Positions 1 to 18,880 of a DNA stretch of 19,266 nt are shown piece after piece. Below the pieces are notes generated by a model. That model did not search any database, was not told the origin of the DNA, and saw only the letters and a program-made list of their open reading frames with translations. The position numbers were made by a program, and so were the translations under genes. The stretch spans positions 1-19,266 of the forward strand of contig JBNPEG010000030.1 in NCBI GenBank assembly GCA_051117555.1, written 5' to 3'. Each line of letters begins with the position of its first letter. The stretch's first letter is position 1. Source of the stretch: Elainellaceae cyanobacterium. GTDB lineage: Bacteria; Cyanobacteriota; Cyanobacteriia; CAZCXK01.

Positions 1-2
1 AC

Positions 3-86
3 TGCGATCGCTTGCTATGCGACATCGAAAATTCTCTTCATCAAATTCAGGTCTGGATGATGGCGACAACTCCAACCCCCATCTAA
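3..86 (+). CDS. Possible 3' end of a gene entering from the left edge (…CDRLLCDIENSLHQIQVWMMATTPTPI*)
   Basis: Frame open from the window edge to TAA at 84-86 and looks like an amphipathic helix, followed by AT-rich repeat-containing intergenic DNA. Too short to assign a product. Confidence 0.35.
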   Translation, partial: CDRLLCDIENSLHQIQVWMMATTPTPI

Positions 87-199
87 AGAGCATTAGGGGA
101 ACATTGATTGCTCTAAACGGTCATTTAATCAATTCTCGATTTTGGATTTTAGATTGGTGGACACAAACTCTAAAAGAGTTCTAGCCCTGTATTGAGGCT

Positions 200-265
200 A
201 TCCCTTACCTTTCCCCAAGAGGGAAACAAGCATTTTAGCTACCCTCTTGGGAGAAGTTGGGGATG
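200..265. repeat. Imperfect inverted repeat (dispersed palindromic repeat or possible terminator) downstream of the 320..745 gene
   Basis: CCCAAGAGGG (214-223) pairs perfectly with CCCTCTTGGG (242-251), with imperfect outward extension. Heptamer-like GATTTTG/GATTTTA repeats lie nearby at ~138-153. Confidence 0.55.
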
Positions 266-319
266 CGTTTCAATCATCACATCGAACGTGCGAGATTGTT
301 GCTTAGCAGGCCCTTAAAC

Positions 320-745
320 TTACCACAATGCTCGAGGATAGGTTTCATCAGTGACGACATCGGGTGAGCCTTCTAACGGTGCCTCTGCATCAGGAGATGC
401 GGGCGATTCATCTTCGACAGGTGCCGGATTAGCTGGAGATTCCATGTCGGTAGGTTCGTCCTCAAACGTAGGATCGGTATCCATAGATGGATCGTCATCA
501 AACGTAGGATCTGCATCCATAGATGGATCGTCATCAAACGTAGGATCGGTATCCATAGATGGATCGTCACTAGCAGGCAGATCGTCCTCAGGAGTCCCTT
601 CGTCAAGGGTTTCCTCAGGAGTTGGCGTGGGAGTTGGCGCGTCTTGAGATCGTGCTGATGATATTAATCCGCCCACACCTGCAATCGAAACTAACGCGAT
701 GGAAACGCTTAGCAAAAGTCGGTAGACAGATAACCAATTAACCAT
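320..745 (-). CDS. Secreted acidic Asp/Pro/Glu-rich low-complexity protein with 12-aa repeats, C-terminus YPRALW
   Basis: Hydrophobic N-terminal signal peptide (LLLSVSIALVSIAGVGGLISSARS|Q), strong SD AGGAGG (753-758) upstream of the ATG, and three DDPSMD[T/A]DPTF[D/E] repeats. Confidence 0.85.
   Translation of the reverse strand: MVNWLSVYRLLLSVSIALVSIAGVGGLISSARSQDAPTPTPTPEETLDEGTPEDDLPASDDPSMDTDPTFDDDPSMDADPTFDDDPSMDTDPTFEDEPTDMESPANPAPVEDESPASPDAEAPLEGSPDVVTDETYPRALW
462..569. repeat. In-frame 36-bp tandem repeat x3
   Basis: TCAAACGTAGGATCGGTATCCATAGATGGATCGTCA at 462-497, 498-533 (2 mismatches) and 534-569, with no spacers. Confidence 0.95.
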
Positions 746-752
746 GATTCAT

Positions 753-758
753 CCTCCT
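753..758 (-). promoter_or_regulatory. Shine-Dalgarno site overlapping the upstream stop codon (translational coupling)
   Basis: Minus strand reads TAAGGAGGATGAATC-ATG; the TAA is the stop of 758..2284. Confidence 0.75.
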
Positions 759-2284
759 TAAGATGGAGAGTGCGGCAAATGAGCAGCCCCTCGCCCACAA
801 GACAAGTCCCCGTTGATGAGGCTGCCATTACGCCACGTTCCGGTTTCGGATGACCCATCGGTGAATTGAAAGGTTCCCTCACCGTGACATTTGTTGGCCT
901 GGAACTCACCTATGTAGCGATCGCCCGTTTCGAGTGTCCATATTCCAATGCCTTCAAATTGATCATTCTCAAACTGTCCGACATATTGCCGTCCATTGTC
1001 AAAGGTAAACGTGCCACAGCCGTTCCGCCTGCCATCTCGATATTCGCCGTCGTAGCGATCGCCATTGGCAAAAATCATCGTGCCGCGACCGTCTGCTGGG
1101 ACATTGCCAGAAAATTCTCCATAAAACTCGGTGCCATTTTCGTAGGTGTAGTCTGGAGTCTGCGCCGAAACATTCGGCAATGGTGGCTCATTGCAAGGCA
1201 GATTGGCTAGATCGACTGCCGAGGCAGACCGTGGAGAACGAATCGTGGTGCGCCAGCCGATTACTGCCACACTTGCAATTGCTCCAACGCCGAGAATAAT
1301 TGCGGTAATCATGACTCCCCGGCTCAATCGCCAGTCTCGCGTTGGTAATGATAATGGGGCGTACTCTTGATTGAGTCGATTGATGGGCGATCGCTGCGAC
1401 TGGACACGAGAGGAAGTTGGAATGGCTGACTCGGCGTGAAGAGCAGCAGGTTGAGACACAGCAATCTGAGGGAGGGATTTCGGAGCATTGTCCTTGGTAT
1501 TGTTTAACCAAGGGTCGGGGAGCGATCGCGCCGATGGTGTTTGATCTCCACCAGATTCTGAATTATTCCCGGTTTGAGGAGCTGTTGCGGGTTCGTGGAC
1601 AGGATCTGATATATCCGAGTTGGCGATCGCTAGGTCATCTGGCGTGATATCGGTATCAGTCGCTTGATTGAGTTCTGTACTGGGAGTATTTGCGTGAGCC
1701 TCATTACCTAACTCATCGGGTGATTCATTAGAGGATTGAACCGTTGCCCAAGTAGACAAATCAGGCTGTTCTCGAACCAAGGTAGCAAACTCATTAGGCT
1801 TTAAGTTACCCCGTTGAGGATAGCGACTTTGCTCGTGCTGCCGTAGATAGACATGGGTGCAGTCTACGCGCTCAAATTTCGTCGCTAGACTAATTGACCA
1901 ATTTTCAAGACAGGCTCCGGTGAGACGAGCAGCGCTAAAGTCTGTACCGTCTGCTTGGACACTGACTAGCTTAGCTGCTGCTAAGTTTGACGCACTGAGA
2001 TTAGCTCCGGTGAGGTTAGCACCTGCAAGGTTAGCACCTGCGAAACAGGCACCGCTAGCATATGCGCCTGTGAGGTCGGCACCTGTTAAATCTGCATGGA
2101 TTAAGTTAGCACCAATCAGACATGTGCGGTTGAAAATCACATGTTGCAAATTTGCCCCGCGCAAGTCGGCCTCAAATAAATAACAGCGACTTAAATCTGG
2201 TTTTACGTGGGGATGGGTCTCTCTCCATTGATTCCATGGGTCTACACCCCGCTGAATCAAATCAAAGAAGTGACTATCGCTCAT
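758..2284 (-). CDS. Pentapeptide-repeat / single-TM / MORN-repeat membrane protein
   Basis: N-terminal W-N-x-W-R cap and A(D/N)LxG pentapeptide repeats, a disordered linker, a TM helix (GVMITAIILGVGAIASVAVIGW), then MORN repeats (YDGEYRDGRRNGCGTF, YVGQFENDQFEGIGIW, YIGEFQANKCHGEGTF). Confidence 0.9.
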   Translation of the reverse strand: MSDSHFFDLIQRGVDPWNQWRETHPHVKPDLSRCYLFEADLRGANLQHVIFNRTCLIGANLIHADLTGADLTGAYASGACFAGANLAGANLTGANLSASNLAAAKLVSVQADGTDFSAARLTGACLENWSISLATKFERVDCTHVYLRQHEQSRYPQRGNLKPNEFATLVREQPDLSTWATVQSSNESPDELGNEAHANTPSTELNQATDTDITPDDLAIANSDISDPVHEPATAPQTGNNSESGGDQTPSARSLPDPWLNNTKDNAPKSLPQIAVSQPAALHAESAIPTSSRVQSQRSPINRLNQEYAPLSLPTRDWRLSRGVMITAIILGVGAIASVAVIGWRTTIRSPRSASAVDLANLPCNEPPLPNVSAQTPDYTYENGTEFYGEFSGNVPADGRGTMIFANGDRYDGEYRDGRRNGCGTFTFDNGRQYVGQFENDQFEGIGIWTLETGDRYIGEFQANKCHGEGTFQFTDGSSETGTWRNGSLINGDLSCGRGAAHLPHSPS

Positions 2285-2321
2285 GGAAGCAGCGCCGAAT
2301 GAATGTCAATCGAACGTCAAT

Positions 2322-3809
2322 TTACTGTGATGAGGTGCGATCGCCCGATGAACGGTTAACTGACGATAATCTACCATTATCAGATGGCGTTTCTAACCCG
2401 TGCTCACTCGATTGTACTAGCGTTGACAGCTCAGGTAAGGTGCTGTCTGACTCCGACAATGTACGGTCAATTCTTTGCAATGCCCATTGAGCTGTTTTTC
2501 GCACCTCTGCATCCACGTCGTTAACCGCAAATCGCAAATGACGGTTCACTTGAGCGACCAAATCATAGATGCGAGTGATTTCTCGAATCGCGTTTTTGCG
2601 AACATCTACATTTTCATCTTGCATCGATACAATAAGTGCCCGATTCATAGGTTTTAGGATGCGAATTCCAATTTCTGAAACTGCCGCCAAAATCAGACAG
2701 CGTTGATGAGAATCAGACGTTGCCATTAGATCTATCAGAGGAAGGATGGCATCTGAATTTCCTTGCTGACCCAGTTCCCAGATAGCTTTACGACGAACAT
2801 TCGGGTCGGTGTGATCCAGGTCAAGCGTTAACTGGCGAACAATCTCAGTTTGAGATGGGGGTGTTACGGGGGTAGGCACCATCAGCAACGGTTCGTCACT
2901 TGACGGCGATTCGGCATTATTCTTACTCGCTCCGGTACGGTTTGTATCGAGAGAACGTATTTGAGACGAGGCCGGAGTTGACGAAGCCAAATTAGATCGA
3001 TGAAATCTATGGCTCGATGCTGCGGTTCGCGGCGTCGCTGAAGAACGAGAGGCTCGTGCCCTAAATTGCCTGAAAAATAAGGAAATCTGCCGCGATCGAG
3101 GAATTCGAATTAGCCCGTAGTAAGTCAAGGCGTAGGTAACTATGCTGCCAGTGCCCAGCACCACGGCTATGATTAAGAACTGATTCAGCCAGTCCTGTTG
3201 AGCGTTTTCGGTGTTGACGGTTGCGCCTGCGTCTACTTCTGGACTGGATGGTGCATCGGGACTTGCCTCATCCTCTTCAGAAACTGTCTCACCAGTTTCA
3301 CTCGCTAACGTCGAATTGTCTTTGAAGAATTCAGAAATATCGGTTCCAGGATTAAGTTCTTGGAGAGTCTGCCAAGTTTCTTGATCAAGTTCACCCGTGT
3401 CGGACAACCTAAACTGACGCTGGAATTCAATCAATGCGAGTCGCGTTTGATTGCCATAGACTCCGTCGATTTCACCGTTGTAGTATCCGGCTTGATATAA
3501 AAGAGTTTGCAGTTGAGCGACCTCTGCATCACTAGGACTAACCTCTGAGGACGGAGTTTGCGGTTCAGTCAAACGGGTTGAGACAAGGCTGGCCTGAGCA
3601 GAATCGGCTACAGGGACACCATCAGTTATAACGCTTACCGAACTTTTGTCGGGAGCAAATCGCACCTCTGACGCACCTAAAATTAAATTAGATGATACGA
3701 TGCTGCAACTTGCCAGACTTGTTGCAATCAAAAGCTTTAAACGACAAGACATGGCATTTAGCACAGGGAAACTGGCAGATTGAAGAACAGACCCCCGAGC
3801 GTATCCCAC
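2322..3809 (-). CDS. Peptidoglycan-binding-domain / TM / HEAT-repeat protein (true start may be the ATG at 3752)
   Basis: PG_binding_1-like VAQLQTLLYQAGYYNGEIDGVYGNQTRLALIEFQRQFRLSDTGELDQETW, TM FLIIAVVLGTGSIVTYALTYYGLI followed by an Arg-rich stretch, and HEAT-like DPNVRRKAIWELG, DENVDVRKNAI, DAEVRKTAQWAL. Confidence 0.88.
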   Translation of the reverse strand: MGYARGSVLQSASFPVLNAMSCRLKLLIATSLASCSIVSSNLILGASEVRFAPDKSSVSVITDGVPVADSAQASLVSTRLTEPQTPSSEVSPSDAEVAQLQTLLYQAGYYNGEIDGVYGNQTRLALIEFQRQFRLSDTGELDQETWQTLQELNPGTDISEFFKDNSTLASETGETVSEEDEASPDAPSSPEVDAGATVNTENAQQDWLNQFLIIAVVLGTGSIVTYALTYYGLIRIPRSRQISLFFRQFRARASRSSATPRTAASSHRFHRSNLASSTPASSQIRSLDTNRTGASKNNAESPSSDEPLLMVPTPVTPPSQTEIVRQLTLDLDHTDPNVRRKAIWELGQQGNSDAILPLIDLMATSDSHQRCLILAAVSEIGIRILKPMNRALIVSMQDENVDVRKNAIREITRIYDLVAQVNRHLRFAVNDVDAEVRKTAQWALQRIDRTLSESDSTLPELSTLVQSSEHGLETPSDNGRLSSVNRSSGDRTSSQ

Positions 3810-3963
3810 CTAATTCATGGGCAATCACTATCGCTGCGATAGCAAGCTCGACCCGGAGGCAAAGCGTTCACACACATAATGTTATAGTTTGCAGGACGAT
3901 TCCATTCAAGGTGAGTTCCTGCTCAAGGATAGTCAAAATTGATGTCCCACACTCAACCTAACC

Positions 3964-5778
3964 TTAATTTCCGCTTTGCGATTGTTTGCTGAAATAAACT
4001 TTATAGATTTCGTGGGCAATCGGCAGGGCAGCAGTGCTGCCGTATCCACCATTCTCGACGATTGCTGCGATCGCAATTTGGGGATTATCAGCAGGACCAA
4101 ACCCGACAAAGAGGGAGTGAGAGGGTTTTCCAAGCACTTCTGCCGTTCCCGTTTTGCCACCAGTCAGTGGAATTAATCCATCATTAAGTCGTCGTGCAGT
4201 CCCGTTTTGAACGGCTGCTACCATACCAGATCGAATAACTGCTAACGATTCGGGCGGAATTCCGGTGGCTACGCGCTCCGTGGTGGCGGTATTGGTTTCG
4301 TCTGCGAGCAGGTGAGGCTTGACTCGCAATCCCCCATTGACAATCGTTGAGACGACGGTAGCAAGCTCTAACGGAGTGACTTGAACCAACCCTTGTCCGA
4401 TTGCCATACTCACCGTATCGCCTGTATACCAGGGTTCGCCAAACAGTTCTTCCTTCTCTTCAGGGGTTGGCACCATGCCTCCATTTCCACCACCGAGCCC
4501 TAAGTTTCCTGCGACCCCAACCCCCAAAGCCTTCGCCCAGTGAGAAATTTGTTGAGGGCCAGCGGCAATGCCGACCTGATAAAAAAAGGTGTTACTGCTG
4601 TAGGCGATCGCCTGAGGAAACCCAATCACCCCATAGCCGCGATTGCTGTGTTCCCAGAATTGTGTGCCGCCTACCGTAATAAATGCAGATGTTCCAAGCG
4701 TAGAATTGGATGAGAACTTTCCAGACTGCATTCCAGCCGTTGCAGTGACAATTTTGAACGTACTGCCGGGTGCATAGCCTTGCAATGCTCGATTGAGGAA
4801 GGGTTGGCTGGCTCCCTGCAATTGATTCCACTCATCCTCACTAACACGACGAGTAAACATATTGGGATCGAATGACGGCCCGCTCGCCAATGCCAATACT
4901 TCTCCCGTTTGAACATTCAAGACTGCAACCGCACCACGACGGTTATTAAGGGCTCGTTCAGCCGCTTTCTGCAAGTCTAGATTCAATGTCAGTCGAACCT
5001 GAGAGCCTGCTTCAGGTGGTTGCACCCCCAACCATCGAAGTTCTCGTCCTCTGAAATCAACCTCGACGAGTCGGCTTCCCCATGTGCCCTCGATTCGGTC
5101 ATTGGCCAAGCGCTCGACCCCCATTTGACCGACAATCATGCCCATCGGATAAGCGGGGTTAGCATTCATATCTTCTTCATTGGCTTCGCCGATATAGCCC
5201 ACGACATGTGCTGCAAGATCGCCATGAGGATAGTAACGGCTCGATTCACCTAGCACCTGCACACCCGGAAATCGCAATGCGTGTTCTGCTAATGTGACGA
5301 ATGCCTTCGGGTCAACTCGCTGGCTTACTCGAATGGGTAATGCAGAGTTGTATCCAACTTTTTCAAGCCGCTGGATGATTTCTTCGGGTGGAATATTGAG
5401 TAACTGACCCAAATCCGCCGCTGTTTTCTGCCACTGTTGCCGAGATTGGTAGCGAGGCCACAGATACACTGAACGGGTGAGTCGATTGGCCGCTAAGATT
5501 TTGCCGTTGCGATCGGTGATATTGCCCCGATCAGAGGGAACTGGTACCAGTCGAATTCTGTTTTGATCCGCAAGTTGACGATAATAATGCCCGTGATCAA
5601 GCTGGATTTGGGCAATGCGGAGGCCGCATAGTCCCATCAGGGTCGTCATGATCAACACGACAAATGTTCCACGCAGGACGAGATTCTCGCGATCAACCAC
5701 GTTATGCATGAACGAATCGGGCGTTTGTTTTCTAGCGCCCTGTCGATGGGGTGAATAGGTGGAAAGCCCTCTAGCCAT
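3964..5778 (-). CDS. mrdA: Penicillin-binding protein 2 (class B transpeptidase)
   Basis: N-terminal TM, dimerisation-domain motifs RGNITDRNG and RYYPHG, and catalytic motifs SxxK (STFK), SxN (SSN) and KTG(T). Confidence 0.93.
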   Translation of the reverse strand: MARGLSTYSPHRQGARKQTPDSFMHNVVDRENLVLRGTFVVLIMTTLMGLCGLRIAQIQLDHGHYYRQLADQNRIRLVPVPSDRGNITDRNGKILAANRLTRSVYLWPRYQSRQQWQKTAADLGQLLNIPPEEIIQRLEKVGYNSALPIRVSQRVDPKAFVTLAEHALRFPGVQVLGESSRYYPHGDLAAHVVGYIGEANEEDMNANPAYPMGMIVGQMGVERLANDRIEGTWGSRLVEVDFRGRELRWLGVQPPEAGSQVRLTLNLDLQKAAERALNNRRGAVAVLNVQTGEVLALASGPSFDPNMFTRRVSEDEWNQLQGASQPFLNRALQGYAPGSTFKIVTATAGMQSGKFSSNSTLGTSAFITVGGTQFWEHSNRGYGVIGFPQAIAYSSNTFFYQVGIAAGPQQISHWAKALGVGVAGNLGLGGGNGGMVPTPEEKEELFGEPWYTGDTVSMAIGQGLVQVTPLELATVVSTIVNGGLRVKPHLLADETNTATTERVATGIPPESLAVIRSGMVAAVQNGTARRLNDGLIPLTGGKTGTAEVLGKPSHSLFVGFGPADNPQIAIAAIVENGGYGSTAALPIAHEIYKVYFSKQSQSGN

Positions 5779-5816
5779 GCTTCAACACGTTCCTGCTCGT
5801 CAATGAATTGGTCTGT

Positions 5817-5909
5817 TATAGCCCTACGAGTTTGGACTTATGGGTAGAATCCCCGTGCCGCTGGGGTTCTACACACGTTTGACGTCCCAATGCGAGACAC
5901 AAGGCTATA
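5817..5909. repeat. Small TATAGCC...GGCTATA palindromic dispersed element, copy 1 (degenerate)
   Basis: Starts TATAGCCCTACG, contains a TGGGTAGAATCCCC/GGGGTTCTACACA stem, and ends GCGAGACACAAGGCTATA. Similar to 18881-18965. Confidence 0.7.
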
Positions 5910-6125
5910 TTTCGCCCTCAATACATTTGGGCGATCGCTGCGATGAAATCAGTGGACAATCCCGAACCATTCCATCTGCTGTAAAATTCAACCTATTCGA
6001 CCCAGCAATCCGGATAGATTTACCGAGAAACTATGTAGTTTTTACGAAGCTTGTCGGAATAACGAAATGAGTTGATACCGCCCTATGGATATGGCTGCGC
6101 TAGCACTGTGCTCGTGTTGTACGGG

Positions 6126-7262
6126 TTAATCAAATCTCACTCGTAACAGAGACAGATCATCATCTAGAGTTTTTTGACCTCTAAATGCATAAATTTCGCT
6201 GAGTATTCCATCTAAGTTTGTATGCTCTGGCTGGTTTCTCAATAAATCAATAAATGCTTCAAGACCGCCACGTTCATCATAGTAATTAGCATTTTGATTA
6301 ATTTCATAGGCACCATCGCTAAATACGTATAAGACGCTTCCCTCTGGAATAAAATGACAACTGCTTTTGTAGGTAATATCGGTCATCATCCCAATAGGAA
6401 GGTTGGGCGTTCTTAGTTGCTCAAACGTTAATTTCTGACCCTCAGGCGTCACTAAAATTGCGGGTGGATGACCGGCACTTGCATAGACAAGCTGACGTTT
6501 TACCCGATTAAATATTCCGTACCACATCGTGAAATATTTATCATTTTGGCTATTCATTTGAAATGTTTCATTTAGTGCTTTTAAAACAGCAGGAGGCTGA
6601 TAAAAGCTAACCTCTGGAAGTGACTGCGATCGCAACACATTTAAGATAGAAATTGACGGTAACGCTGCGCCCAAGCCATGACCTGAAACATCTAACAAAT
6701 AAATTACTAAATAGTCGGGATCAAGCCAGTAGTAGTCAAAGCAGTCACCGCCAAGCTGACTCGATGGTATAAATCGGGAATCAATGCTGACAGTTCCCGT
6801 TAACGGAAGAGGTAGAATTGATCGAACATAATCAGCAGCTTCATGGAGCTCTGCTTCTAAAATCTGCTTCTGGGTTTGTAAGTCTTGATTGAGCTGATAA
6901 AGCCTTAGCCCAGCTCGAACTCTTGCCCGTAACTCATTGATTTCAATCGGTTTTGTTAGAAAATCATCTGCCCCTGTGTCTAACCCTTTAACGCGATCCT
7001 CAACTTCAGTTCGAGATGTCAGCAGAATAAAAAACGTCGTTGATAAATGAGGATTGCATTTAATGTGACGACAAACATCTAATCCGTCTAACCCTGGCAT
7101 CATCCAGTCACAAATAATCAGCGCCGGACGAAACTGCTTGGCCTTGTCTACACCGCTTTCGCCATCACTAGCGACAATGACATCACAATCTTGCTCTTGC
7201 AATGCTTTTTTGAGAACGAGCCGAACAACTGGATCATCATCGATGACAAGAATCTTGGGCAT
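6126..7262 (-). CDS. Response-regulator receiver fused to a SpoIIE/RsbU-type PP2C phosphatase
   Basis: Receiver motifs IDDD, CDWMMPGLDG, LTS and TKP, a coiled linker, and PP2C motifs GGDCFD, DVSGHG, SAGHPP, FSDG and DDDLS. Confidence 0.93.
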   Translation of the reverse strand: MPKILVIDDDPVVRLVLKKALQEQDCDVIVASDGESGVDKAKQFRPALIICDWMMPGLDGLDVCRHIKCNPHLSTTFFILLTSRTEVEDRVKGLDTGADDFLTKPIEINELRARVRAGLRLYQLNQDLQTQKQILEAELHEAADYVRSILPLPLTGTVSIDSRFIPSSQLGGDCFDYYWLDPDYLVIYLLDVSGHGLGAALPSISILNVLRSQSLPEVSFYQPPAVLKALNETFQMNSQNDKYFTMWYGIFNRVKRQLVYASAGHPPAILVTPEGQKLTFEQLRTPNLPIGMMTDITYKSSCHFIPEGSVLYVFSDGAYEINQNANYYDERGGLEAFIDLLRNQPEHTNLDGILSEIYAFRGQKTLDDDLSLLRVRFD

Positions 7263-7501
7263 AACAAAATGAGGCTAGCGAGTCTAAAACTATGAAATAT
7301 TTATTAATCGCGAAAAAGTTATCGATGAAACGTTATTCATTAGGTTTGCCAACTTAATCTTCGATGGTTGAGAGTGATAATAAGGAATCAATATGTAAAG
7401 ACTATCAAGAAATATGAGTATTAAAATTAAGTTTCCTTGAAGATATAGGTACCCTTGCTCCCGTACAACTCCCCGGATTCGACTTAAATGGTTTAGTAAG
7501 A

Positions 7502-7999
7502 TTGATGAGAGCTTATTGGCAGACTCTCGTTCGTGCGTTGATTTCACTGGGGGATTACTTTCCGTTGAAAGTGACTCAGAAACAGGCTATTCAAGTTCAT
7601 ACCGACTTGGGTGAATTGCCCAATGTGTTGTCGTGGTTTGATCGCTTCCAATATCCCTTGGTTCCCTATTCGACTTGGCTCCAGTGCCAGTTGGCGTTAG
7701 CAGAAGGGTTTACCAATGCGGTTCGCCATGCTCATCGCAGTCAACCGTCAGAAACCCTTATCGATATTGAGGTCTGTGTGCTAGACCATGCGGTTGAGAT
7801 TCGTATTTGGGATTATGGTCCAGGATTTGATCTCGACCAAATGGTCAATCAAATGCCGCTAGAGGTCGACCAGGATTCTGAGAGCGGTAGAGGGTTGCGA
7901 CTCATGAAACGATTGGCAGATCGACTCAGCTATAAACGTGGGGACGATCAGCGAAATTGCCTTTTAGTGGTGAAATATTATTCCGAAACAGATGACTAG
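7502..7999 (+). CDS. RsbW/SpoIIAB-like anti-sigma factor Ser/Thr kinase (true start may be TTG 7565 or GTG 7571)
   Basis: GHKL motifs: N-box EGFTNAVRH, G1 DYGPGF, G2 GRGL. Divergent from the PP2C gene. A GGGGGA SD-like run lies at 7549-7554. Confidence 0.88.
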   Translation: MMRAYWQTLVRALISLGDYFPLKVTQKQAIQVHTDLGELPNVLSWFDRFQYPLVPYSTWLQCQLALAEGFTNAVRHAHRSQPSETLIDIEVCVLDHAVEIRIWDYGPGFDLDQMVNQMPLEVDQDSESGRGLRLMKRLADRLSYKRGDDQRNCLLVVKYYSETDD

Positions 8000-8108
8000 T
8001 ACTGTTTGGCAACAATAAGCCAACCATTTAAGCGCGGGCAAGATGCCCGCGACGTGAGCGAGACGCTCACACTACGGGTATGAAACTTCTGCCATCTTGT
8101 ACTAGTCA
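7993..8108. mobile_element. MITE/REP-like mini-element with 10-bp terminal inverted repeats and two internal hairpins
   Basis: TGACTAGTAC (7993-8002) and GTACTAGTCA (8099-8108); hairpins CGCGGGCA-AGA-TGCCCGCG (8033-8051) and GTGAGCG-AGA-CGCTCAC (8054-8070) followed by ACTAC (GTAG on the minus strand). Mobility is inferred only. Confidence 0.6.
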
Positions 8109-8219
8109 GTGAATATAATTAAATTCGAGCGCGTTTCATCAATTCAAAACCAAAGGGATTGATATCACAAATCGTGAGTATTTGTTTAGAGTAAAGCCCT
8201 ATCTGGTTAAGCTCACTCC

Positions 8220-8270
8220 TGATAGCCAGATGTGATAGCCAGATGTGATAGCCAGATGTGATAGCCAGAT
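8220..8270. repeat. 13-bp tandem repeat, about 4 copies
   Basis: TGATAGCCAGATG at 8220, 8233 and 8246, plus TGATAGCCAGAT at 8259. Confidence 0.95.
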
Positions 8271-8373
8271 ATTTTTTCAATTTTATTGTTGACCGTTACA
8301 AAAACTGCAACTCTCGGTCATCGGAATCAGTAGCGGTGCCATGGTAGAGCGGTATAGATTTTATATTTAAACT

Positions 8374-10782
8374 ATGAAGCTCTCATCTATCGGATTGGCG
8401 ATCGCCCTATTCACCAGCATTTCAAACAGTACTTTTCCCATCGCACTCGCACAATCAACTCAGTCTCCTCAGATGCAGATGAATCCTTCAACTATTCGCT
8501 CCGCATCAGACGCCGCTGCTCCTCAGGCCACTGGCGGACTCTACGTTCAATCGGATACGGAGCAGCGTGTATTTCCGCTGATACACACCGATGTTACCGC
8601 TACGGTCAGCGGCAACCTATCACGGGTAGAAGTGACTCAAACCTTTGAAAATCCGTTTGAGGAGTCTCTAGAAGCAGTTTATGTGTTTCCCTTGCCTGAC
8701 GAGGCTGCTGTTGATGCGATGGAGATCAAACTGGGCGATCGCACGATTCGCGGAGACATTAAACGCCGAGAAGAAGCCCGCCAAATTTACGAACAGGCAA
8801 TCCAAGAGGGTCGCACTGCCGGGCTGCTTGAACAAGAACGTGCCAATATTTTTACCCAGTCTGTTGCCAATATTCGCCCCGGCGAGCAGGTCGAGGTCAC
8901 AATTCGCTATACCGAGAGCTTACGGTTTGAAGATACGGCCTATGAGTTTGTTTTTCCGATGGTCGTTGGGCCGCGGTATATTCCTGGTGTACCGACTAAC
9001 CCACGGGGCGACACCGATCAGGTCTCGGATGCGTCACGAATTACGCCTCCCGTTTTGCATCCGGATGAGCGGTCTGGGCATGACATCAGTGTAATGGTCA
9101 ATATTGAGGCAGGCATCCCGATTCGAGAGGTGCGATCGCCCTCCCATGAGATTCAGACCCAACACAATGGCGATCGCATCCAGGTGCAGCTTGCCGACCA
9201 GGACACGATCCCAAATAAAGATCTAATTCTGCGCTATCAAATATCTGACGAAAACACTCAAGCAACCGTGCTCACCCAAGCCGACGATCGAGGCGGGCAT
9301 TTTGCTGCCTATCTTGTTCCGGCCATTGACTATCCCACTGATGAAATTGTCCCCAAAGATGTGGTGTTTCTCATGGATACCTCGGGTTCACAGCAGGGTG
9401 AGCCCTTGGCAAAGTCGCAAGAACTCATGCGCCGCATGATTAATGGCCTAAACCCAGACGACACGTTTACCATTATTGATTTCGCTAATACTGCCGCGCG
9501 CTTGTCATCAGCGCCCTTGCCTAACACTCCCCAAAATCGGCAGCGGGCGATCGCCTATGTGAATCGCCTTACGGCAAATGGGGGCACCGAATTGCTCAAT
9601 GGCATGCAATCTGTGCTCGATTTTCCGGCAGCAGAGGCAGGTCGGCTACGCAGCATTGTACTGCTGACAGATGGATACATCGGGAATGAAGCCAGCGTCA
9701 TTGCCGAAGTGCAGCAGCGGCTCAACGAGGGCAATCGGCTCTATGGGTTTGGCGTGGGCAGCTCAGTCAACCGCTTTTTGCTGAATCGGCTTGCAGAGGT
9801 GGGGCGAGGCACGGTTCAGGTGGTTCGCCATGATGAACCCACCGAGGAGGCGATTGAGCAATTCTTTCAACACATCAACAATCCCGTGTTGACCAACATT
9901 CAGGTCGAATGGAACGGGCAAGGAGACGCGCCCGATATGTATCCTCTAGCGGCTCCAGACTTGTTTGCCAACCAGCCGCTCGTGCTGTTTGGGCGTAAGG
10001 CAGATCGACTCAGCGGCACATTGACAATAACGGGCACTGCGGCGGGCGGGCAGCCTTATGCTGAAACCTTGAATATCAATTTTGACGACACTCAGCCCAA
10101 TGAGGCGATCGCCCAACTGTGGGGGCGTGCCAAAATCAAAGACCTGATGAATCAAATGTATGGCGGAGAAACAGTATCAGGCGTGGAAGCTGTAACGCAA
10201 ACGGCGCTAGAGTATCGCCTCCTTTCGCAATACACCTCATTTGTTGCTATGAGCGAAGAAGTGCGAGTTGACCCAGACGGCACACGACGCACGGTTCAGG
10301 TTCCAGTTGAGCTCCCCGAAGGAGTCAGCTACGAGGGCATTTTTGGTGCTCCAGAGGCGGCATCCCAGATGGGAACACCCCCAGCAGGTTTTGCTACGCT
10401 TCAACGACGGAGCCGAGGCGCTATGCCGTCTGCTGGGGTCGCTCCAAGTCTAGATACCGCGTTAGAAAATCGTCCGATTCGACCGGCTCAACCGCCAATC
10501 CGTCGCGTCAGCGTGATAGATGTCGAAGGGTTAGATGAATCAGCGATCGCCCGATTAGAGCCCTATCTCCAGCGCATCCAGCCGCCTACAGACGTATCGG
10601 GAGAGGTCGTCTGGGAACTTCGTCTCTGGAATGGTCGGATCGAACGCATCCTGCTTGATGACCGAGCCTCTACCCTTCACGATCAAACAACCTTGAATGC
10701 CATGCGGCGATCGCTCCAGATGTGGCAACCGCCTGATGGGGTAACGGGCACCGTGCGGATACGTCTAAGCGTTAGTCCTTGA
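8374..10782 (+). CDS. Secreted VIT (vault/inter-alpha-trypsin inhibitor) + vWA domain protein with an extra C-terminal domain
   Basis: Signal peptide ending ALA|Q, VIT motifs (VEVTQTFENP, EAVYVFPLP, AGLLEQER.NIF), vWA MIDAS DTSGS...GGTE...LTDG, conserved LWGRAKI and LLSQYTSFVA, then a Pro-rich linker and a ~90-aa terminal domain. Confidence 0.92.
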   Translation: MKLSSIGLAIALFTSISNSTFPIALAQSTQSPQMQMNPSTIRSASDAAAPQATGGLYVQSDTEQRVFPLIHTDVTATVSGNLSRVEVTQTFENPFEESLEAVYVFPLPDEAAVDAMEIKLGDRTIRGDIKRREEARQIYEQAIQEGRTAGLLEQERANIFTQSVANIRPGEQVEVTIRYTESLRFEDTAYEFVFPMVVGPRYIPGVPTNPRGDTDQVSDASRITPPVLHPDERSGHDISVMVNIEAGIPIREVRSPSHEIQTQHNGDRIQVQLADQDTIPNKDLILRYQISDENTQATVLTQADDRGGHFAAYLVPAIDYPTDEIVPKDVVFLMDTSGSQQGEPLAKSQELMRRMINGLNPDDTFTIIDFANTAARLSSAPLPNTPQNRQRAIAYVNRLTANGGTELLNGMQSVLDFPAAEAGRLRSIVLLTDGYIGNEASVIAEVQQRLNEGNRLYGFGVGSSVNRFLLNRLAEVGRGTVQVVRHDEPTEEAIEQFFQHINNPVLTNIQVEWNGQGDAPDMYPLAAPDLFANQPLVLFGRKADRLSGTLTITGTAAGGQPYAETLNINFDDTQPNEAIAQLWGRAKIKDLMNQMYGGETVSGVEAVTQTALEYRLLSQYTSFVAMSEEVRVDPDGTRRTVQVPVELPEGVSYEGIFGAPEAASQMGTPPAGFATLQRRSRGAMPSAGVAPSLDTALENRPIRPAQPPIRRVSVIDVEGLDESAIARLEPYLQRIQPPTDVSGEVVWELRLWNGRIERILLDDRASTLHDQTTLNAMRRSLQMWQPPDGVTGTVRIRLSVSP

Positions 10783-10806
10783 ATACCTCGCTTTGCCGTT
10801 TTGCAT

Positions 10807-10854
10807 TCACTATTTTGTATTCTCACTATTTTGTATTCTCACTATTTTGTATTC
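10807..10854. repeat. 16-bp tandem repeat x3 overlapping the cyclase stop codon
   Basis: TCACTATTTTGTATTC at 10807, 10823 and 10839. The last copy encodes N-T-K-stop of the minus-strand gene. Confidence 0.95.
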
Positions 10855-13535
10855 ATCAGATATACCCCGTCCCAATGATCGGGCGGGGGATGTTTGAGAT
10901 AGCGGCGCGATCGCTGCAAGAAAGTCTTAATGGCCCGATCGTTTTCTTTAAGCCGTTGCGCCTGCTCAAAAATCTGAATTGCGCGTTGAAAATTACGATT
11001 AGAGTATGCAATACGCCCCGATTGATACAGTTCAATGAATTCCTGCATGAGGTCGCTCAAGGGTTCGCGGCGATCGCCAATCAGCTCGTAGATATTGATG
11101 GGATTCGTTTTGCCTTTCACGCACACATGATCGAGTTCTCGCACCCAAACGCGATCGCGGCACAGTTGGTACGTAAATTCACTCAAGATGATGTCACATC
11201 CCTGGCGATCGGTCGTGCCATACTGCTTCGTCAGCCCTTCTAACCGGGAGCTGATGTCTACCCCATCGCCAATCACGGTATAATCCATGCGTCGTTGAGA
11301 GCCGATGTTGCCGGATACCACCTCGCCAGAGCTAACGCCAATTCCGATTTTAATTTTCATGTCATCGGGGCGAGTGCGGTTAAATTCTGCCAGGCGGCGA
11401 CGCATTTCTAATGCCGACTGTACCGACATCCATGCATGATTCTCCAGTGATAGGGGGGCACCGAAAACTGCCATCAGCGCATCGCCAATAAATTTATCGA
11501 GAGTGCCTTCGTAGTTAAATACCGCTTCAACCATTGTTTCAAAGTAGTTGTTGAGCAGTGAAACAACATCAGCGGCTTCGAGGCGTTCGGTGAGAGAGGT
11601 ATAGCCGCGAATATCAGAAAATAAAATCGTCACGTCTTTGCGCTCACCCACCATAAGGGCATCGTCGCCTAGCGCCAGCACTCGTTCTGCCACAGCAGGA
11701 GGCATATAGCGGTGCATGGTAGCTTTCATTCGCTTTTCTTGGCTAATGTCTTCTAAGACTACCAATCCCCCGATTACTCCGCCCTCTAAATTTGTCAAAG
11801 GATTGACCGTGAGATTGACGCTGCGCTCAATGTTTCGAACGTCGCGGGTTGGCACCCCGTGAATTGACCCGTTGTTGCCGTTATGGTCAGGTGAAATTGG
11901 CTCATTCCACAAAAGGCATCGGTCGGGATTAGTGCGATCGCGCACTGCCAAGACGTAGGGTTCAGCCAGTTCGAGTCGATCAGCGTCATCCGTTTGTAGG
12001 CCAGGGACATCTCGCCCTGTTCGGGGGTGTGGAGGTGAGGAAACGTGTGTGGTTTTTGGGGCTCCAGTTCTAGGGATCATGACACGAATCGTGCCAGGAT
12101 GCCGAAATAGCCCGGTCTTCAGACTCTGTTCTGGAACATAGTGCCGAGCGGCTGCGGTTAGACTATCATTGAGCCGAAACTCTAAGTTTTCGACTGGCAC
12201 AACATCCCAAACTAAGCGCCCAATCAGCTTCTGATGCCAGAGCACTTGATGCGAGCGATCGCCCTCCTCGCTCATCGGGCAGCCCAATAGATGGAGCGCT
12301 GCATCGTTGATTGTGACAATCTTGCCCTGCATATCCGTTGAAATGACAGCATCCGAAAGGCTTTGCAACATATCTTTCTGATACTGCTTTTCTTGCAAAA
12401 CGCGTTCAAACAGTTGGGCATTTTCTAGCGCAATGCCCGCCTGAATATTAAACGCTCGCATAAACTCTTCATCTGACTGGGTAAACCCTCCTTGGTGTTT
12501 GTTGATCAGTTGCGTCACGCCAATGAGGGCACCCCCAGAGTTGTATACAGGCATACATAAGATATTATGCGTGTGATAGCCCGTCTTTTGGTCAGTGGTC
12601 GGATCAAATCGAGGATCTTCATAGGCATTGGGAATATTTAGCGTGCGTCTAGTGGAGGCGACATATCCTGCGATCCCTCTGTTAGCCGGAATGCGGATAT
12701 CTACCATAGTTGTGCCGTCCGCTTTGGCGATTCGTGACCAGAGTTCGTTTTGATCAGAATCGAGCAAAAATAGAGTGCTGCGATCGGCCTGCATCAGGTT
12801 TCGGGCTTCATCCATAACCGACTGCAAAGTTTTCTCTAAATCGAGGCTTTGCCCCAGACATGATGCCGCTTTGAGGAGGGCATTGACGCCTCGCTGATTG
12901 CGCGCAGCGACATAAAAGGAATTGCAGCTTTCTAAAATGATGCCAATCGAGTCTGCAAATTCGCGAAAACTGCGCTCATCATCTCGATCAAACGGCATAC
13001 CCGTCCGTTTATTGAGAAGCTGCACCACTGCTACGACCTGTTTTTTGGTGCTCAAAATGGGCATACAGAGGATATTTTGGGTCTGATATCCTGTTTGCTT
13101 GTCAACGTCTCGGTTAAAGAGGGGATGCGCATAGGCATCTGGAATATTGAGGTACTCTCCTGTGGTTGCCACATGCCCCGCAATTCCAGCATTGATAGGA
13201 ACGCGAATTTCTAATGATTCCTCCCCCTGACCTTGAGCAATTTTTGACCAAAGCTGCTCTCGCTCTTCGTCAACCAGGAAAATCGTGGTGCGATCGGCTT
13301 GGAGAATCTGCCCGATTTTGAGGGTGAATGCTTCCAAAATCTGCTCGAGCATTGTTTCCAGGGCTTCGTTGTTGATCATCTCGATCGCCTGGAGGAAATG
13401 CTCAAACTCTTTGGTGATTTGGTCGAGCAGACTGATGAATTGAGGAACGGGTAGATCTTTGACGCGATGAGTCAGGTCGCTCTTGCGATCGACCTGAGAC
13501 AGCGTAGCCAGCATACTGCTAGAGGAGGATGTCAT
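10842..13535 (-). CDS. cyaB: CyaB-type class III adenylate cyclase (GAF-GAF-PAS-cyclase-TPR-like tail)
   Basis: Tandem GAFs with NKxnFxxxDE signatures (NKRTGMPFDRDDE, NKHQGGFTQSDEE), PAS-like LSDAVISTDMQGKIVTINDAA, cyclase motifs FSDIRGYT, DKFIGDA, GNIGS..RMDYTVIGD and SRLE, and a C-terminal WDGV tail. Confidence 0.92.
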   Translation of the reverse strand: MTSSSSSMLATLSQVDRKSDLTHRVKDLPVPQFISLLDQITKEFEHFLQAIEMINNEALETMLEQILEAFTLKIGQILQADRTTIFLVDEEREQLWSKIAQGQGEESLEIRVPINAGIAGHVATTGEYLNIPDAYAHPLFNRDVDKQTGYQTQNILCMPILSTKKQVVAVVQLLNKRTGMPFDRDDERSFREFADSIGIILESCNSFYVAARNQRGVNALLKAASCLGQSLDLEKTLQSVMDEARNLMQADRSTLFLLDSDQNELWSRIAKADGTTMVDIRIPANRGIAGYVASTRRTLNIPNAYEDPRFDPTTDQKTGYHTHNILCMPVYNSGGALIGVTQLINKHQGGFTQSDEEFMRAFNIQAGIALENAQLFERVLQEKQYQKDMLQSLSDAVISTDMQGKIVTINDAALHLLGCPMSEEGDRSHQVLWHQKLIGRLVWDVVPVENLEFRLNDSLTAAARHYVPEQSLKTGLFRHPGTIRVMIPRTGAPKTTHVSSPPHPRTGRDVPGLQTDDADRLELAEPYVLAVRDRTNPDRCLLWNEPISPDHNGNNGSIHGVPTRDVRNIERSVNLTVNPLTNLEGGVIGGLVVLEDISQEKRMKATMHRYMPPAVAERVLALGDDALMVGERKDVTILFSDIRGYTSLTERLEAADVVSLLNNYFETMVEAVFNYEGTLDKFIGDALMAVFGAPLSLENHAWMSVQSALEMRRRLAEFNRTRPDDMKIKIGIGVSSGEVVSGNIGSQRRMDYTVIGDGVDISSRLEGLTKQYGTTDRQGCDIILSEFTYQLCRDRVWVRELDHVCVKGKTNPINIYELIGDRREPLSDLMQEFIELYQSGRIAYSNRNFQRAIQIFEQAQRLKENDRAIKTFLQRSRRYLKHPPPDHWDGVYLMNTK

Positions 13536-13849
13536 GACGGTAGACTTTCAGGACAGCACTTGTCCAGCGTTAGATAGATGATAGAGTCCAGAACACAGAA
13601 AGGGATGTCAAGCGTTCCAGAACGTCGGTCTGACGCTGGCAACGCACCATTAACTGTGCTTAACTATTACGCTACAACGTCTGCAAACGAGGACATCAAA
13701 TCATGAGTCTTTAATTTGAGACTTTACATAATTTGGCAGCTAGATGTAGTAATGACAAAGCACGGATACGCGATTATACATGTCCTCTTAACTAAAATGG
13801 GGTTACAGCGTTATTTCTGATGCAGATTATCCCCATCGCCTGCCTATTT

Positions 13850-13873
13850 AAATCAATCGCGAAATCAATCGCG
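13850..13873. repeat. 12-bp tandem duplication abutting a HIP1 site
   Basis: AAATCAATCGCG at 13850-13861 and 13862-13873, with GCGATCGC at 13873-13880. Confidence 0.8.
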
Positions 13874-13944
13874 CGATCGCACCCCAATGTTTCTATCTGA
13901 GTGTAGTCTGTCTTATCGGGTGCAAAATTAAAATTTGCAGATTA

Positions 13945-16032
13945 TCATCCAGCCATATCAAGAACGCTCACCAGAAAGCCAAACTTGTCGGCAATTTCTT
14001 CAATAATTTTGGTGGTCGGTTTACCCGCTCCGTGCCCGGCTTTTGTTTCGATGCGAATCAGCACCGGAGCATCGCCTGCATGAGCATCTTGCAGCGCTGC
14101 TGCAAACTTAAAGCTGTGGGCAGGCACCACGCGATCATCGTGATCAGCCGTTGTAAGCAGCGTTGCAGGATATGCGGTTCCAGGACGCAAATTGTGCAGG
14201 GGTGAATAGGCATACAGCGCTTTGAATTCGTCGGGATCATCGGGGGAGCCGTAGTCTGATGTCCATGCCCAGCCGATCGTGAATTTGTGAAAGCGCAGCA
14301 TATCCATCACGCCAACGGCAGGCAGCACGGCGGCAAATAAGTCTGGGCGTTGAGTCATGCAAGCCCCAACCAGTAAGCCACCATTGCTGCCGCCAGAAAT
14401 TGCTAACTTGCTAGACGACGTATAGCGATGCTCAATCAGCCACTCTGCCGCTGCAATAAAGTCATTAAAAACATTCTGTTTATTAGACTTGGTGCCTGCT
14501 TGGTGCCAGTCTTCACCATATTCACCGCCGCCTCGCAGATTGGGAACCGCATACACCCCTCCGAGTTCCATCCACACCAGATTGCTAATCGAGAAACTAG
14601 GCGTTAGCGAAACGCCAAATCCGCCGTATCCATATAGCAGCGTTGGATTATTGCCGTCGAGTTCTAAGCCGGTTTTGTGAGTAATAAACATGGGCACTTG
14701 AGTGCCGTCCTGACTGGTATAAAACACCTGCCTGGTTTCATAGTCGTCTGGATTGAAGTCTACGGTGGGTTGACGAAAGAGAGTGCTCTCGCCTGTCACG
14801 AGGTCATAGCGATAAATCGTAGGCGGAGTGGTAAACCCGGTGAACGCATAGAAAGTTTCTGTATCGTCTCGCTGGCCACGAAATCCGCCTACTGAACCGA
14901 TTCCGGGCAGATCTATATCTCGCACCCCAGACCCATCTAAGTTAAAAATCTTGACTGTGGAATAGGCATCTTTCAAATATGCAGCCACAAACTGATGGTT
15001 AAGCAAGCTGATTCCTTGAAGCGTGTCATCGGATTCAGGAATAATTTCGTGCCAGTGTTCAGGTGCTGGATTCGTAATATCAATGGCGATCGCCCGTCCT
15101 CGCGGAGCATGCAAATCCGTTTGAAACCAAAACGTCGTGCCATCATTGTCGATGAAATTATACTCGGCTTCAAAGGTATTGATTAGCTCAACGACCTCAG
15201 CATCGGGCTGGGTGAGGTCTTGATAAAACACCAAATTCTTAGGGTCGGTGCCTTTCCACACTGAAATGATGAGATAGCGTCCATCATCGGTCACGCTGCC
15301 GCCGAATCCCCATTCTTTTTGGTCAGGACGGTGATAGATCAGCACATCATCCGATTGGGAAGTGCCCAGACGGTGATAATACAGCTTTTGATAGTAGTTA
15401 ACGTCTTCTAGTTTCGTGGCGTCGTTGGGTTCGTCATAGCGACTGTAAAAAAAGCCCTGATGGTCGTGAGTCCAAGAGGCTCCAGAGAATTTGACCCACT
15501 GAATATGGTCATCTAAGTCTTCGCCCGTCTCTACATTGCGCACGTTCCATTCTTGCCAGTCTGAACCGGATGTAGACATGCCATAGGCAACCAGTTTGGC
15601 ATTTTCGCTAATGGCAACCCCAGACAGGGCAACCGTTCCATCGTCAGAGAAGGTGTTGGGGTCAATTAAAACCGTTGGCTCTGCGTCTAAATCCGTCAGA
15701 GTGTAGAGCACATCTTGATTTTGCAAACCATCATTTTTGAAGTAAAAATAGCGGTCTGCCTTCTTGATTGGAGTGCGAAATTTTTCATAATTCCAGAGGC
15801 GGGTGAGTCGCTCTTTGATAGACTGTCGTTCTTCAATATCGTTCAAATATCCAAATGTCAGCCGATTTTGCGCCTCAATCCAGGCTCTGCTTTGCTCAGA
15901 ATCGGGATTCTCAAGCCAGCGATACGGATCGGCAACTTTGATGCCGTGATAGTCGTCAATTTGATCAACTTTAGGACTTTCAGGATATGCCAGCAATTTT
16001 GCAGGATTGAGCATGGTCAATACTGAGAGCAA
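13945..16032 (-). CDS. Prolyl oligopeptidase (peptidase S9A; true start may be the ATG at 16014)
   Basis: DPYRWLE, beta-propeller region, YGYGGF, RGGGEYG, nucleophile elbow GGSNGG, Asp motif HDDRV and His motif AGHG. No signal peptide evident. Confidence 0.96.
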   Translation of the reverse strand: MLSVLTMLNPAKLLAYPESPKVDQIDDYHGIKVADPYRWLENPDSEQSRAWIEAQNRLTFGYLNDIEERQSIKERLTRLWNYEKFRTPIKKADRYFYFKNDGLQNQDVLYTLTDLDAEPTVLIDPNTFSDDGTVALSGVAISENAKLVAYGMSTSGSDWQEWNVRNVETGEDLDDHIQWVKFSGASWTHDHQGFFYSRYDEPNDATKLEDVNYYQKLYYHRLGTSQSDDVLIYHRPDQKEWGFGGSVTDDGRYLIISVWKGTDPKNLVFYQDLTQPDAEVVELINTFEAEYNFIDNDGTTFWFQTDLHAPRGRAIAIDITNPAPEHWHEIIPESDDTLQGISLLNHQFVAAYLKDAYSTVKIFNLDGSGVRDIDLPGIGSVGGFRGQRDDTETFYAFTGFTTPPTIYRYDLVTGESTLFRQPTVDFNPDDYETRQVFYTSQDGTQVPMFITHKTGLELDGNNPTLLYGYGGFGVSLTPSFSISNLVWMELGGVYAVPNLRGGGEYGEDWHQAGTKSNKQNVFNDFIAAAEWLIEHRYTSSSKLAISGGSNGGLLVGACMTQRPDLFAAVLPAVGVMDMLRFHKFTIGWAWTSDYGSPDDPDEFKALYAYSPLHNLRPGTAYPATLLTTADHDDRVVPAHSFKFAAALQDAHAGDAPVLIRIETKAGHGAGKPTTKIIEEIADKFGFLVSVLDMAG

Positions 16033-16171
16033 CGTCTATAAACCTCATCCCAGTTCAGGAGTGGAGCTCTACCTGTGAAAAAAACTCCAGATCCCGAGCT
16101 GGACTTGGTATAAGTCTAATTCAATTTGGAATCAGGGTTTTTCATTGTTGCAAAATTAAGGAGCTCTGAAT

Positions 16172-16759
16172 ATGTCAGCACTAACTCGCTATTTCGTCTC
16201 AGGTTCAGCGATCGCCCTTATGTTGGGTTTGGGTGTGTCAGGGGCGATCGCCCAGCCTATGAACCAACCGCTGAAGCAGGATTCTATGATGAACGAGGCA
16301 ACCGTTCAAGTGCCTGCTACGGTTGAGCAAGTCTACGATTCTGGAAATGTCCGCGTTCAGCTAGAAGACGAATCCTATCGAACAATTCCGCTATCAGATT
16401 TAGATATCGAACGGCTCGACCTCGAACCGGGCACCGAGGTGATGTTAACCCTTGAAGACGACAGAGTAATTGCTGTATCGAATGATGATGCAGTGGCCAC
16501 GATTAATATTGCCGATGCAGACGACGTGTCTAATCCATCAGATACCGAAGCAGACTTGGCTGCGACAGATGATACGGACGACACAACAGAGCTGGGAACT
16601 GACACCGAAATAACAGACACAGAGGTGACAACCCGACGCACCGTTGAGGAAGAGCGCCGCGTTGAACCGATTCAAACCGAGACAACTGCCCAAGAACCCG
16701 TGGTTGAAGAAGAACCCACCGAAGTCCAGCAGGGCGAAACCGTTCGCGGACTCTGGTAA
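16172..16759 (+). CDS. Secreted acidic protein: small beta-rich domain plus Thr/Asp/Glu-rich tail, C-terminus TVRGLW
   Basis: SD AAGGAG upstream, signal peptide ending AIA|Q, AbrB/OB-like beta segment (LDLEPGTEVMLTLEDDRVIAV), acidic low-complexity tail and a downstream hairpin. Confidence 0.85.
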   Translation: MSALTRYFVSGSAIALMLGLGVSGAIAQPMNQPLKQDSMMNEATVQVPATVEQVYDSGNVRVQLEDESYRTIPLSDLDIERLDLEPGTEVMLTLEDDRVIAVSNDDAVATINIADADDVSNPSDTEADLAATDDTDDTTELGTDTEITDTEVTTRRTVEEERRVEPIQTETTAQEPVVEEEPTEVQQGETVRGLW

Positions 16760-16772
16760 GTCGTTGCTCAAG

Positions 16773-16798
16773 TCAGGGCATGGTCGCCCATGTCCTGA
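16773..16798 (+). terminator. Stem-loop downstream of the VRGLW gene (putative terminator or 3' stabiliser)
   Basis: TCAGGGCATGG-tcgc-CCATGTCCTGA is an 11-bp stem with one G-U pair, 13 nt after the stop and between convergent genes. No clean U-tract. Confidence 0.6.
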
Positions 16799-16933
16799 GT
16801 GTTGAGTTTGCGTTTCAGATATCGTTTAATTTTTGTAGAACTTACACCAGTTTTCGATTTTTGATTTTTGATTCTTGTTTGTGTAGTCGTTAATGTAGCG
16901 CCAACATTAGCATTTACAGATTTCTAGATGATA

Positions 16934-18832: not shown

Positions 18833-18880
18833 GGGTGCTAGACAGCCTGATTAATAAACGTTGGAACTGAATTCACTGAC

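Follow-up and report, generated by a model that had tools for sequence, protein, structure and literature searches.

Why should two secreted proteins that have little else in common end in nearly the same few residues? The question is raised by a contig of an Elainellaceae cyanobacterium (JBNPEG010000030.1, positions 1 to 19,266; this whole stretch of 19,266 nucleotides is called the window below, and its source genome G000). In it, the genes at 320..745 on the minus strand and 16172..16759 on the plus strand encode exported proteins ending in DETYPRALW and GETVRGLW. A preliminary description had read this ending as a short sorting tag for an envelope partner. We conclude that the tag is real and found throughout the phylum, that an L,D-transpeptidase (LDT) of the YkuD type is well supported as its partner, and that the tag is apparently undescribed.

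Both open reading frames (ORFs) and their tails were confirmed. The 320..745 gene encodes 141 amino acids (aa), its tag Y-P-R-A-L-W and stop codon lying at 320..340 on the minus strand; the 16172..16759 gene encodes 195 aa, with T-V-R-G-L-W and the stop at 16739..16759 on the plus strand. The strong Shine-Dalgarno sites described earlier, AGGAG(G) 7-8 nt before the ATG, are present in both genes: AGGAGG at 753..758 (minus strand), 7 nt before the ATG at 745, and AAGGAG at 16158..16163 (plus strand), 8 nt before the ATG. Predicted signal peptides span aa 1-33 of the first protein and aa 1-27 of the second; judged by eye and hydropathy, without a signal-peptide predictor, the hydrophobic N-termini end in A-R-S|Q and A-I-A|Q, in agreement with the proposed Sec-type cleavage before Gln. 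In the 320..745 protein an acidic linker of DDDPSMDxDPTF-type repeats follows, with no folded domain, while the 16172..16759 protein has a small beta-rich domain, with a weak match to TOBE (E = 0.035), and an acidic and Thr-rich linker. Asp and Glu make up 26% and 23% of the two proteins, respectively, and Lys is absent from the first and present only as K35 in the second. As had been stated, the proteins are otherwise unalike (best BLASTP E = 0.17). Their tails are slightly atypical, with Y or T at -5, where P is usual; a paralogue of the 16172..16759 protein, on contig C169 of G000, ends in PIPALW.

A six-frame scan of G000 gave four further tagged proteins, ending in QPVPALW (C47), EAIPALW (C148, fasciclin-like), DPVNALW (C151) and EPIPALW (C169). 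Because these four end without Arg, Arg is optional, and E-T-x-R cannot be kept as part of the motif. The consensus is P-[VI]-[RP]-[AG]-L-W-COOH, wider than the E-T-x(1-2)-R-[A/G]-L-W first suggested. Among the 6508 ORFs of at least 100 aa in G000, six end in [VIP][PRNQ][AG][LM]W, a motif defined after the hits had been seen; over 200 shuffles the average was 0.07, and no shuffle gave more than 1. A hydrophobic N-terminus is present in all six, compared to 44% of all ORFs of this length.

When 122 distinct tails were compared, the successive positions held P in 100, V or I in 117, R or P in 112, A or G in 121, L in 116 and W in 110, counts that are inflated because the set was chosen by such patterns. 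On these same inflated counts, the motif has at least three nearly invariant residues, as tripartite sorting signals do. Eight of 130 distinct tails had been left out of the count because a hydrophobic N-terminus was absent; four of these look real. Pro replaces Arg in 44 of the 122 tails, so that Arg is not the fixed residue it was taken for. The last residue is W in 110 tails, Y in 5, G in 5 and F in 2, Gly being used in the Gloeobacterales and in family f20. Lys is rare: only 2 of 92 tails have one among their six final residues, and in the linkers it accounts for 0.6% of all residues. The linkers are made mainly of P, T, A, S, E and Q; the acidic character described earlier holds for the window proteins but is not obligatory. 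The stop codon directly follows the terminal Trp, leaving no transmembrane helix and no basic cluster. No model in Pfam or NCBIfam covers the tail, and no NCBIfam sorting-domain match was obtained, in keeping with the earlier remark that no named family was known for it, although one might exist.

The tail is a short C-terminal tag, devoid of a membrane helix, common to exported proteins and kept in orthologues. Orthologues of the 320..745 protein in three genomes (G001, G002 and G003) are 170-180 aa long and all end in VVTDETYPRALW. Relatives of the 16172..16759 protein end in TVRGLW, PIRGLW, PVQGLW, PVRGLW, PVRGMW or PIPALW behind a linker that diverges, and the tag is present at nine of ten loci, the untagged one being L007. 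At the scale of the phylum, a DNA pattern (tag followed by TRR) had matches in 94 of 201 genomes: 26/26 in family f31, 10/10 in f28 and 11/11 in f32, compared to 2/82 in f43, which lies outside the class. Since such a pattern also gives chance matches, the counts used below are limited to genes actually read. All 18 matches in family f44 were rejected, none being a real tagged gene; short or shadow ORFs, including the 83-aa ORF of L035/L076, and an apparent tag in L327 were likewise discarded as false matches.

A genome may hold several tagged proteins (six in G000, with signal peptides judged by hydropathy), and the exported proteins that carry the tag are mostly unrelated, which does not agree with the paralogous set initially imagined. 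They include fasciclin, DUF1400, Ferritin_2, FecR-like, pentapeptide, META and NPCBM proteins, as well as bare linkers behind one or two membrane helices. In G023, a secreted protein of 1238 aa (L424:4263-7979), which by eye resembles an outer-membrane beta-barrel, continues into a P/E-rich linker and PVPALW; it is a candidate tether between outer membrane and wall. At a conserved locus between genes named by eye as cimA-like and thiO/thiG-like, the encoded protein consists of a membrane anchor, a disordered linker and the tag only (C151:31932-32438 in G000; also L041-L048, L054 and L426-L428). This locus was the source of the PIRALW match in all five f31-type loci read and in three more.

The most widespread carrier is a secreted helical family (C47:23557-24027 in G000, with orthologues L129-L198 and P0004-P0119), which is single-copy in 98 of 121 class genomes and usually adjoins a pyrE-like gene. 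Among 71 genomic copies 30 are tagged, and among 116 homologues from databases 72. Untagged members have a G-S-E-F-x-F-E-like segment at the end or an earlier stop, and two of them (P0119 and L180) have a porin-type SLH domain. The family has no match in Pfam; its predicted fold (helical, mean pLDDT confidence score 80) has none in the PDB (best E = 1.8), and comparison with the ESM Atlas returned unnamed cyanobacterial clusters only. Divergent tails of this family, namely PIRGRG, PVPARF and LPQRY/LPQRF (L183, L185 and L188 of f20; L186; L147, L152 and L154), may be of use in mapping the tolerance of the tag.

Judging by hydropathy and charge, all carriers are predicted to place the tag outside the cytoplasm. 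Gloeobacterales have no thylakoids, and tag and LDT both occur in them; the periplasm is therefore the likely site. A role in the thylakoid lumen, considered for the tag, was rejected because Gloeobacterales carry it. In family f51, no matches to CurT or PsbZ were found.

The association with an LDT came from clustering 318 neighbour ORFs of 92 tagged genes, in which the LDT adjoined three separate carrier sequence clusters. Only the cimA-like and thiO/thiG-like neighbours were linked to more clusters, and these flank one syntenic locus. As this lead was found post hoc, it was then tested in two ways, at LDT loci fetched blind to their neighbours and by genome profiling. Three sets of blind loci had a tagged gene no further than 1.5 kb away in 6 of 18, 3 of 10 and 1 of 13 cases, that is, at 10 of 41 loci compared to 0.33 expected; these ten amount to about six independent adjacency events, because several are one Gloeobacterales cassette. 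New carriers were revealed in this way, as well as tails missed by the strict pattern (PAALW, GVRALW, AIRGLW and AIRGLG). LDT-adjacent tagged genes belong to at least six carrier types, with same-strand gaps as short as 4-70 nt.

In the Gloeobacterales cassette (L287, L288, L289, L293 and L294), a twin-arginine-like, G/A/P-rich tagged protein with the tail IRGLW, IKGLW or IRGLG is followed 4-13 nt downstream by the LDT, and then by an HprK-related kinase and an NTP_transf_5 nucleotidyltransferase. Relatives of the 16172..16759 protein adjoin an LDT in other genomes. In G025 (L280), the order is a pentapeptide-MORN look-alike, a tagged acidic protein (...PNPAALW) and the LDT, which follows after 46 nt; by eye, the first two genes repeat the order of 758..2284 and 320..745 in the window. 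Tag-adjacent LDTs are scattered over the LDT tree, with 10 changes, 3 of them forced by the starred branches, in a tree whose bootstrap is not settled.

The enzyme itself was assigned to PF03734 (102.4, 98.8 and 84.9 bits, compared to a curated cut-off of 23.4). G000 encodes two copies with intact catalytic residues, one at C47:25054-25698 and its paralogue at C254:85837-86661. The G000 core, IGFHGT-X10-SHGCIR, fits the YkuD motif phi-G-phi-H-G-(S/T)-X10-(S/T)-x-G-C-phi-R (PMC12729407). In 75 LDT sequences His173, Cys189 and Arg191 are invariant, as are G174, T175 and G188. The nearest solved relative of the LDT profile is Bacillus subtilis YkuD (PDB 2MTZ and 1Y7M; E = 2.9e-27). It has the same HGT...S-x-GC-x-R core, whereas the cyanobacterial enzymes differ in a W-T-D-G hairpin and in an insert, about 15 residues long, ahead of the GP-x-NPLG loop; no tag is known for the Bacillus enzyme. 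A narrow LDT scan of all-species genomes returned 12 loci, all cyanobacterial; an apparent LDT in L104 was rejected as a false match. Tandem LDT pairs were seen at four loci (L285, L296, L298 and L368), one member having S-N-G-C and the other S-H-G-C at the catalytic site; those of L296 and L368 come after a tagged fasciclin gene. LDT domains of this subfamily are also fused C-terminally to proteins of 600-900 aa (P0263, P0265, P0268, P0309, P0314 and P0341).

Phylogenetic profiling for a co-occurring enzyme, which the preliminary description had advised, was carried out for the LDT in 80 genomes, 75 of them class-level cyanobacterial, 'absent' meaning here that tag or LDT was not found with the queries used. 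An intact LDT was present in 53 of the 75; the tag was read in 49 of these, and variant tails (PVPARF and PIRGRG) in 2. The LDT was not found in 21 genomes of 9 families, and no tagged gene was found in any of them, variant tails ending in Y, F or G having been searched in only some. A relaxed pattern gave 81 matches in the 21 LDT-negative genomes, compared to 81 control matches (summed from the table). Reading of 57 such loci, every stop-ending match included, gave no tagged exported gene, while, among 12 LDT-positive genomes until then unresolved, the same pattern revealed tags in 9. One carrier family was looked for in five LDT-negative genomes and not found, in a search without positive control. 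Paired contrasts of presence and absence were seen inside families f35, f2 and f16, and the LDT-negative set includes genomes of 4-5 Mb. Natural disruptions of the LDT were encountered twice, at L290 (G128) and L372 (G044); in G128 only a C-terminal LDT remnant behind a stop codon is left, and the tag is absent.

Neighbourhood and co-occurrence make a transpeptidase-like enzyme the only one of the partners listed at the outset to have gained evidence, and we regard it as highly probable that tag and LDT are functionally linked, whatever the chemistry. As to that chemistry, the following scheme can be proposed. Export by Sec or Tat, or an N-terminal membrane anchor, would put the C-terminus in the periplasm, where the disordered linker would let it reach the wall. 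The LDT Cys would attack the last peptide bond, Leu|Trp-COOH, as an analogue of meso-diaminopimelate (mDAP)|D-Ala-COOH, and Trp would be released; [GA]|Leu is an alternative cut site. Release of the last residue is favoured because, in the stem peptide, the nitrogen of the cut bond belongs to the carboxylate-bearing last residue, the equivalent of which in the tag is Leu|Trp, and the varying terminal residue may fit a leaving group. The free amine of mDAP would then resolve the acyl-enzyme, giving wall-bound small domains, inner-membrane-to-wall tethers and outer-membrane-to-wall tethers. In G000, the LDT at C47:25054-25698 or its paralogue at C254:85837-86661 would act in trans on both window proteins. 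Since Lys is nearly absent from the tag, a covalent link would require the protein to act as donor.

That the LDT cleaves the tag and joins the exported protein covalently to mDAP of the peptidoglycan, in the manner of a sortase, seems to us slightly the better bet. The fuller reading has, in our estimate, an even chance: the YkuD LDT would be a cyanobacterial sortase in reverse, using the tag as acyl donor and cutting an all-L bond, in place from the Gloeobacterales split onwards and lost together with the tag in several lineages. By it, periplasmic domains, inner-membrane tethers and outer-membrane barrels would all be tied to peptidoglycan.

Known systems resemble this one in part. Lpp is anchored by LdtA/B/C in E. 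coli, and Lpp (VRTYKK) and OutB (VRTTKK) by Ldt03/Ldt84 in Dickeya dadantii (PMC12274547, PMC12729407). As here, a YkuD enzyme (PF03734) and a short C-terminal box are involved, the Lpp-type box being graftable onto other proteins, and OutB combines an N-terminal membrane anchor, a variable linker and the box, as one class of carriers does. In known LDT anchoring, however, it is the protein that serves as acceptor, by way of a C-terminal Lys in Lpp and OutB and of an N-terminal Gly or Ala in other cases (PMC12729407, PMC12274547). The cyanobacterial tag nearly always lacks Lys, ends in W, Y, F or G, and is found on many unrelated proteins within a phylum; the Lpp-type acceptor route fails because the tag almost never has a lysine. 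N-terminal anchoring of outer-membrane proteins (Gly-Gly in Coxiella, Ala-Asp in Brucella) and the 1,3-LDT LdtGo2 of Gluconobacter indicate that proteins of various kinds are tethered by YkuD enzymes, and that the donor need not be mDAP but can be L-Ala. In the former, however, the signal is N-terminal and the protein is the acceptor, while LdtGo2 acts on stem peptides only and has a divergent YkuD-like fold (PMC12729407). By eye, and without a count, Gln would be the first residue of both window proteins, and carriers anchored in the membrane would have no free periplasmic N-terminus.

LPXTG/sortase A, PEP-CTERM, GlyGly-CTERM and MYXO-CTERM are comparable in another way: exported proteins unrelated to one another, several in each genome, carry a C-terminal motif preceded by a low-complexity linker, and a Cys enzyme co-occurs, the cleave-and-transfer chemistry proposed here being that of sortase (bioRxiv 10.1101/2023.01.19.524832, PMC13721041). 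Unlike these tripartite signals, the cyanobacterial motif is the very C-terminus, with neither membrane helix nor basic cluster (bioRxiv 10.1101/2023.01.19.524832); its candidate partner is a YkuD enzyme rather than a sortase, exosortase or rhombosortase, and its host is diderm.

Several observations weigh against the LDT link or against the cleavage proposed. The lead was picked post hoc from neighbour clustering, at 31 of the 41 loci fetched blind the LDT lacks a tagged neighbour, the Gloeobacterales cassette, sampled repeatedly, supplies three of the ten blind matches, and neither window gene adjoins an LDT in G000. In two genomes with an intact LDT, G016 and G014, no tag was found in the four of five and four of seven stop-ending matches that were read. 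More search routes were applied to LDT-positive than to LDT-negative genomes, and the Fisher P values, 1e-13 and 6e-6, overstate the significance because the genomes are related. G044 keeps a PVRALY tail although the only LDT copy found is split by an insertion-sequence (IS)-like transposase; this break may be recent, since four congeners have intact LDTs. Finally, in the LDT systems tabulated in the review consulted, the protein invariably serves as acceptor and the bond broken is an L-D one; a cut of L-Leu-L-Trp has no precedent there (PMC12729407).

Among the alternatives, docking might be non-covalent, the tag binding the LDT or a wall structure made by it (3-3 cross-links, tripeptide stems) and the carriers recruiting, regulating or following the enzyme uncut. 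This would account equally well for neighbourhood and co-occurrence with no new chemistry, and a peptide rich in Pro that ends in an aromatic residue with its carboxylate free would resemble a docking ligand. The great diversity of carriers, however, suits a sorting signal better than a regulator, and Gly, which can stand for the terminal Trp, would be poorly tolerated by a docking anchor; we therefore hold docking to be rather unlikely, if worth serious attention. Cleavage could also take place with an acceptor other than peptidoglycan, namely water (trimming or release), a polyamine or lipid amine, or the lysine of another protein, and YkuD enzymes do include carboxypeptidases and amidases (PMC12729407). 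Yet the arginine of Cys-x-Arg is invariant here, whereas the amidase DpaA is without a conserved arginine, probably the same residue (PMC12729407). The SLH domain that replaces the tag in two members of the helical carrier family likewise points to the wall, and another acceptor appears improbable.

A binding partner elsewhere in the envelope (PDZ protease, Omp85/BamA, SLH-porin or secretin) is a little less probable again. The link with the LDT would then reflect envelope functions lost together in lineages that are streamlined or unicellular. PDZ domains and BamA bind aromatic C-termini, and the tag retained in G044 beside a broken LDT would be understandable. Shared loss leaves the repeated tight adjacency of the LDT to six carrier types unexplained, however, and fits poorly with LDT-negative genomes of 4-5 Mb. 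Mere coincidence between the two window proteins could be argued from the fact that their tails share only R-x-L-W and that short patterns give many chance DNA matches (f44, with 0 of 18 real). Given the excess over shuffling in G000, the conservation in orthologues and the 122 tails on proteins with a hydrophobic N-terminus, its probability is negligible.

The surroundings of the two window genes were also inspected. The 320..745 gene closes a same-strand run (758..5778, minus strand) made up of a PBP2-like gene (by eye), a PG_binding_1 and HEAT protein, and a pentapeptide-repeat and MORN protein (758..2284, minus strand; PF00805, PF02493) directly upstream of it; this neighbourhood is wall-related. 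Both paralogous beta-domain tagged genes of G000 stand tail to tail with an MscS-type channel gene, at 16934..18832 (minus strand, identified with Pfam) in the window and at C169:2847-4310 (minus strand, by eye).

No paper on the tag, or on protein anchoring by LDTs in cyanobacteria, was found in a literature search that left out supplements and most subscription papers. Of six spellings of the motif, only the string 'piralw' was matched, with no title about cyanobacteria.

Should a YkuD enzyme indeed use a protein tail as donor, a much-studied family would gain a chemistry new to it, and the attachment of proteins and membranes to the cyanobacterial wall would have an explanation valid across the phylum. 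An LDT subfamily so far unstudied and many hypothetical proteins, including a nearly universal single-copy cyanobacterial family, receive a role that can be tested, and a tag of six residues could serve as a simple means of displaying proteins in the periplasm. Should the link prove non-covalent, tag and enzyme would still form a new pair provided with natural controls of gain and loss.

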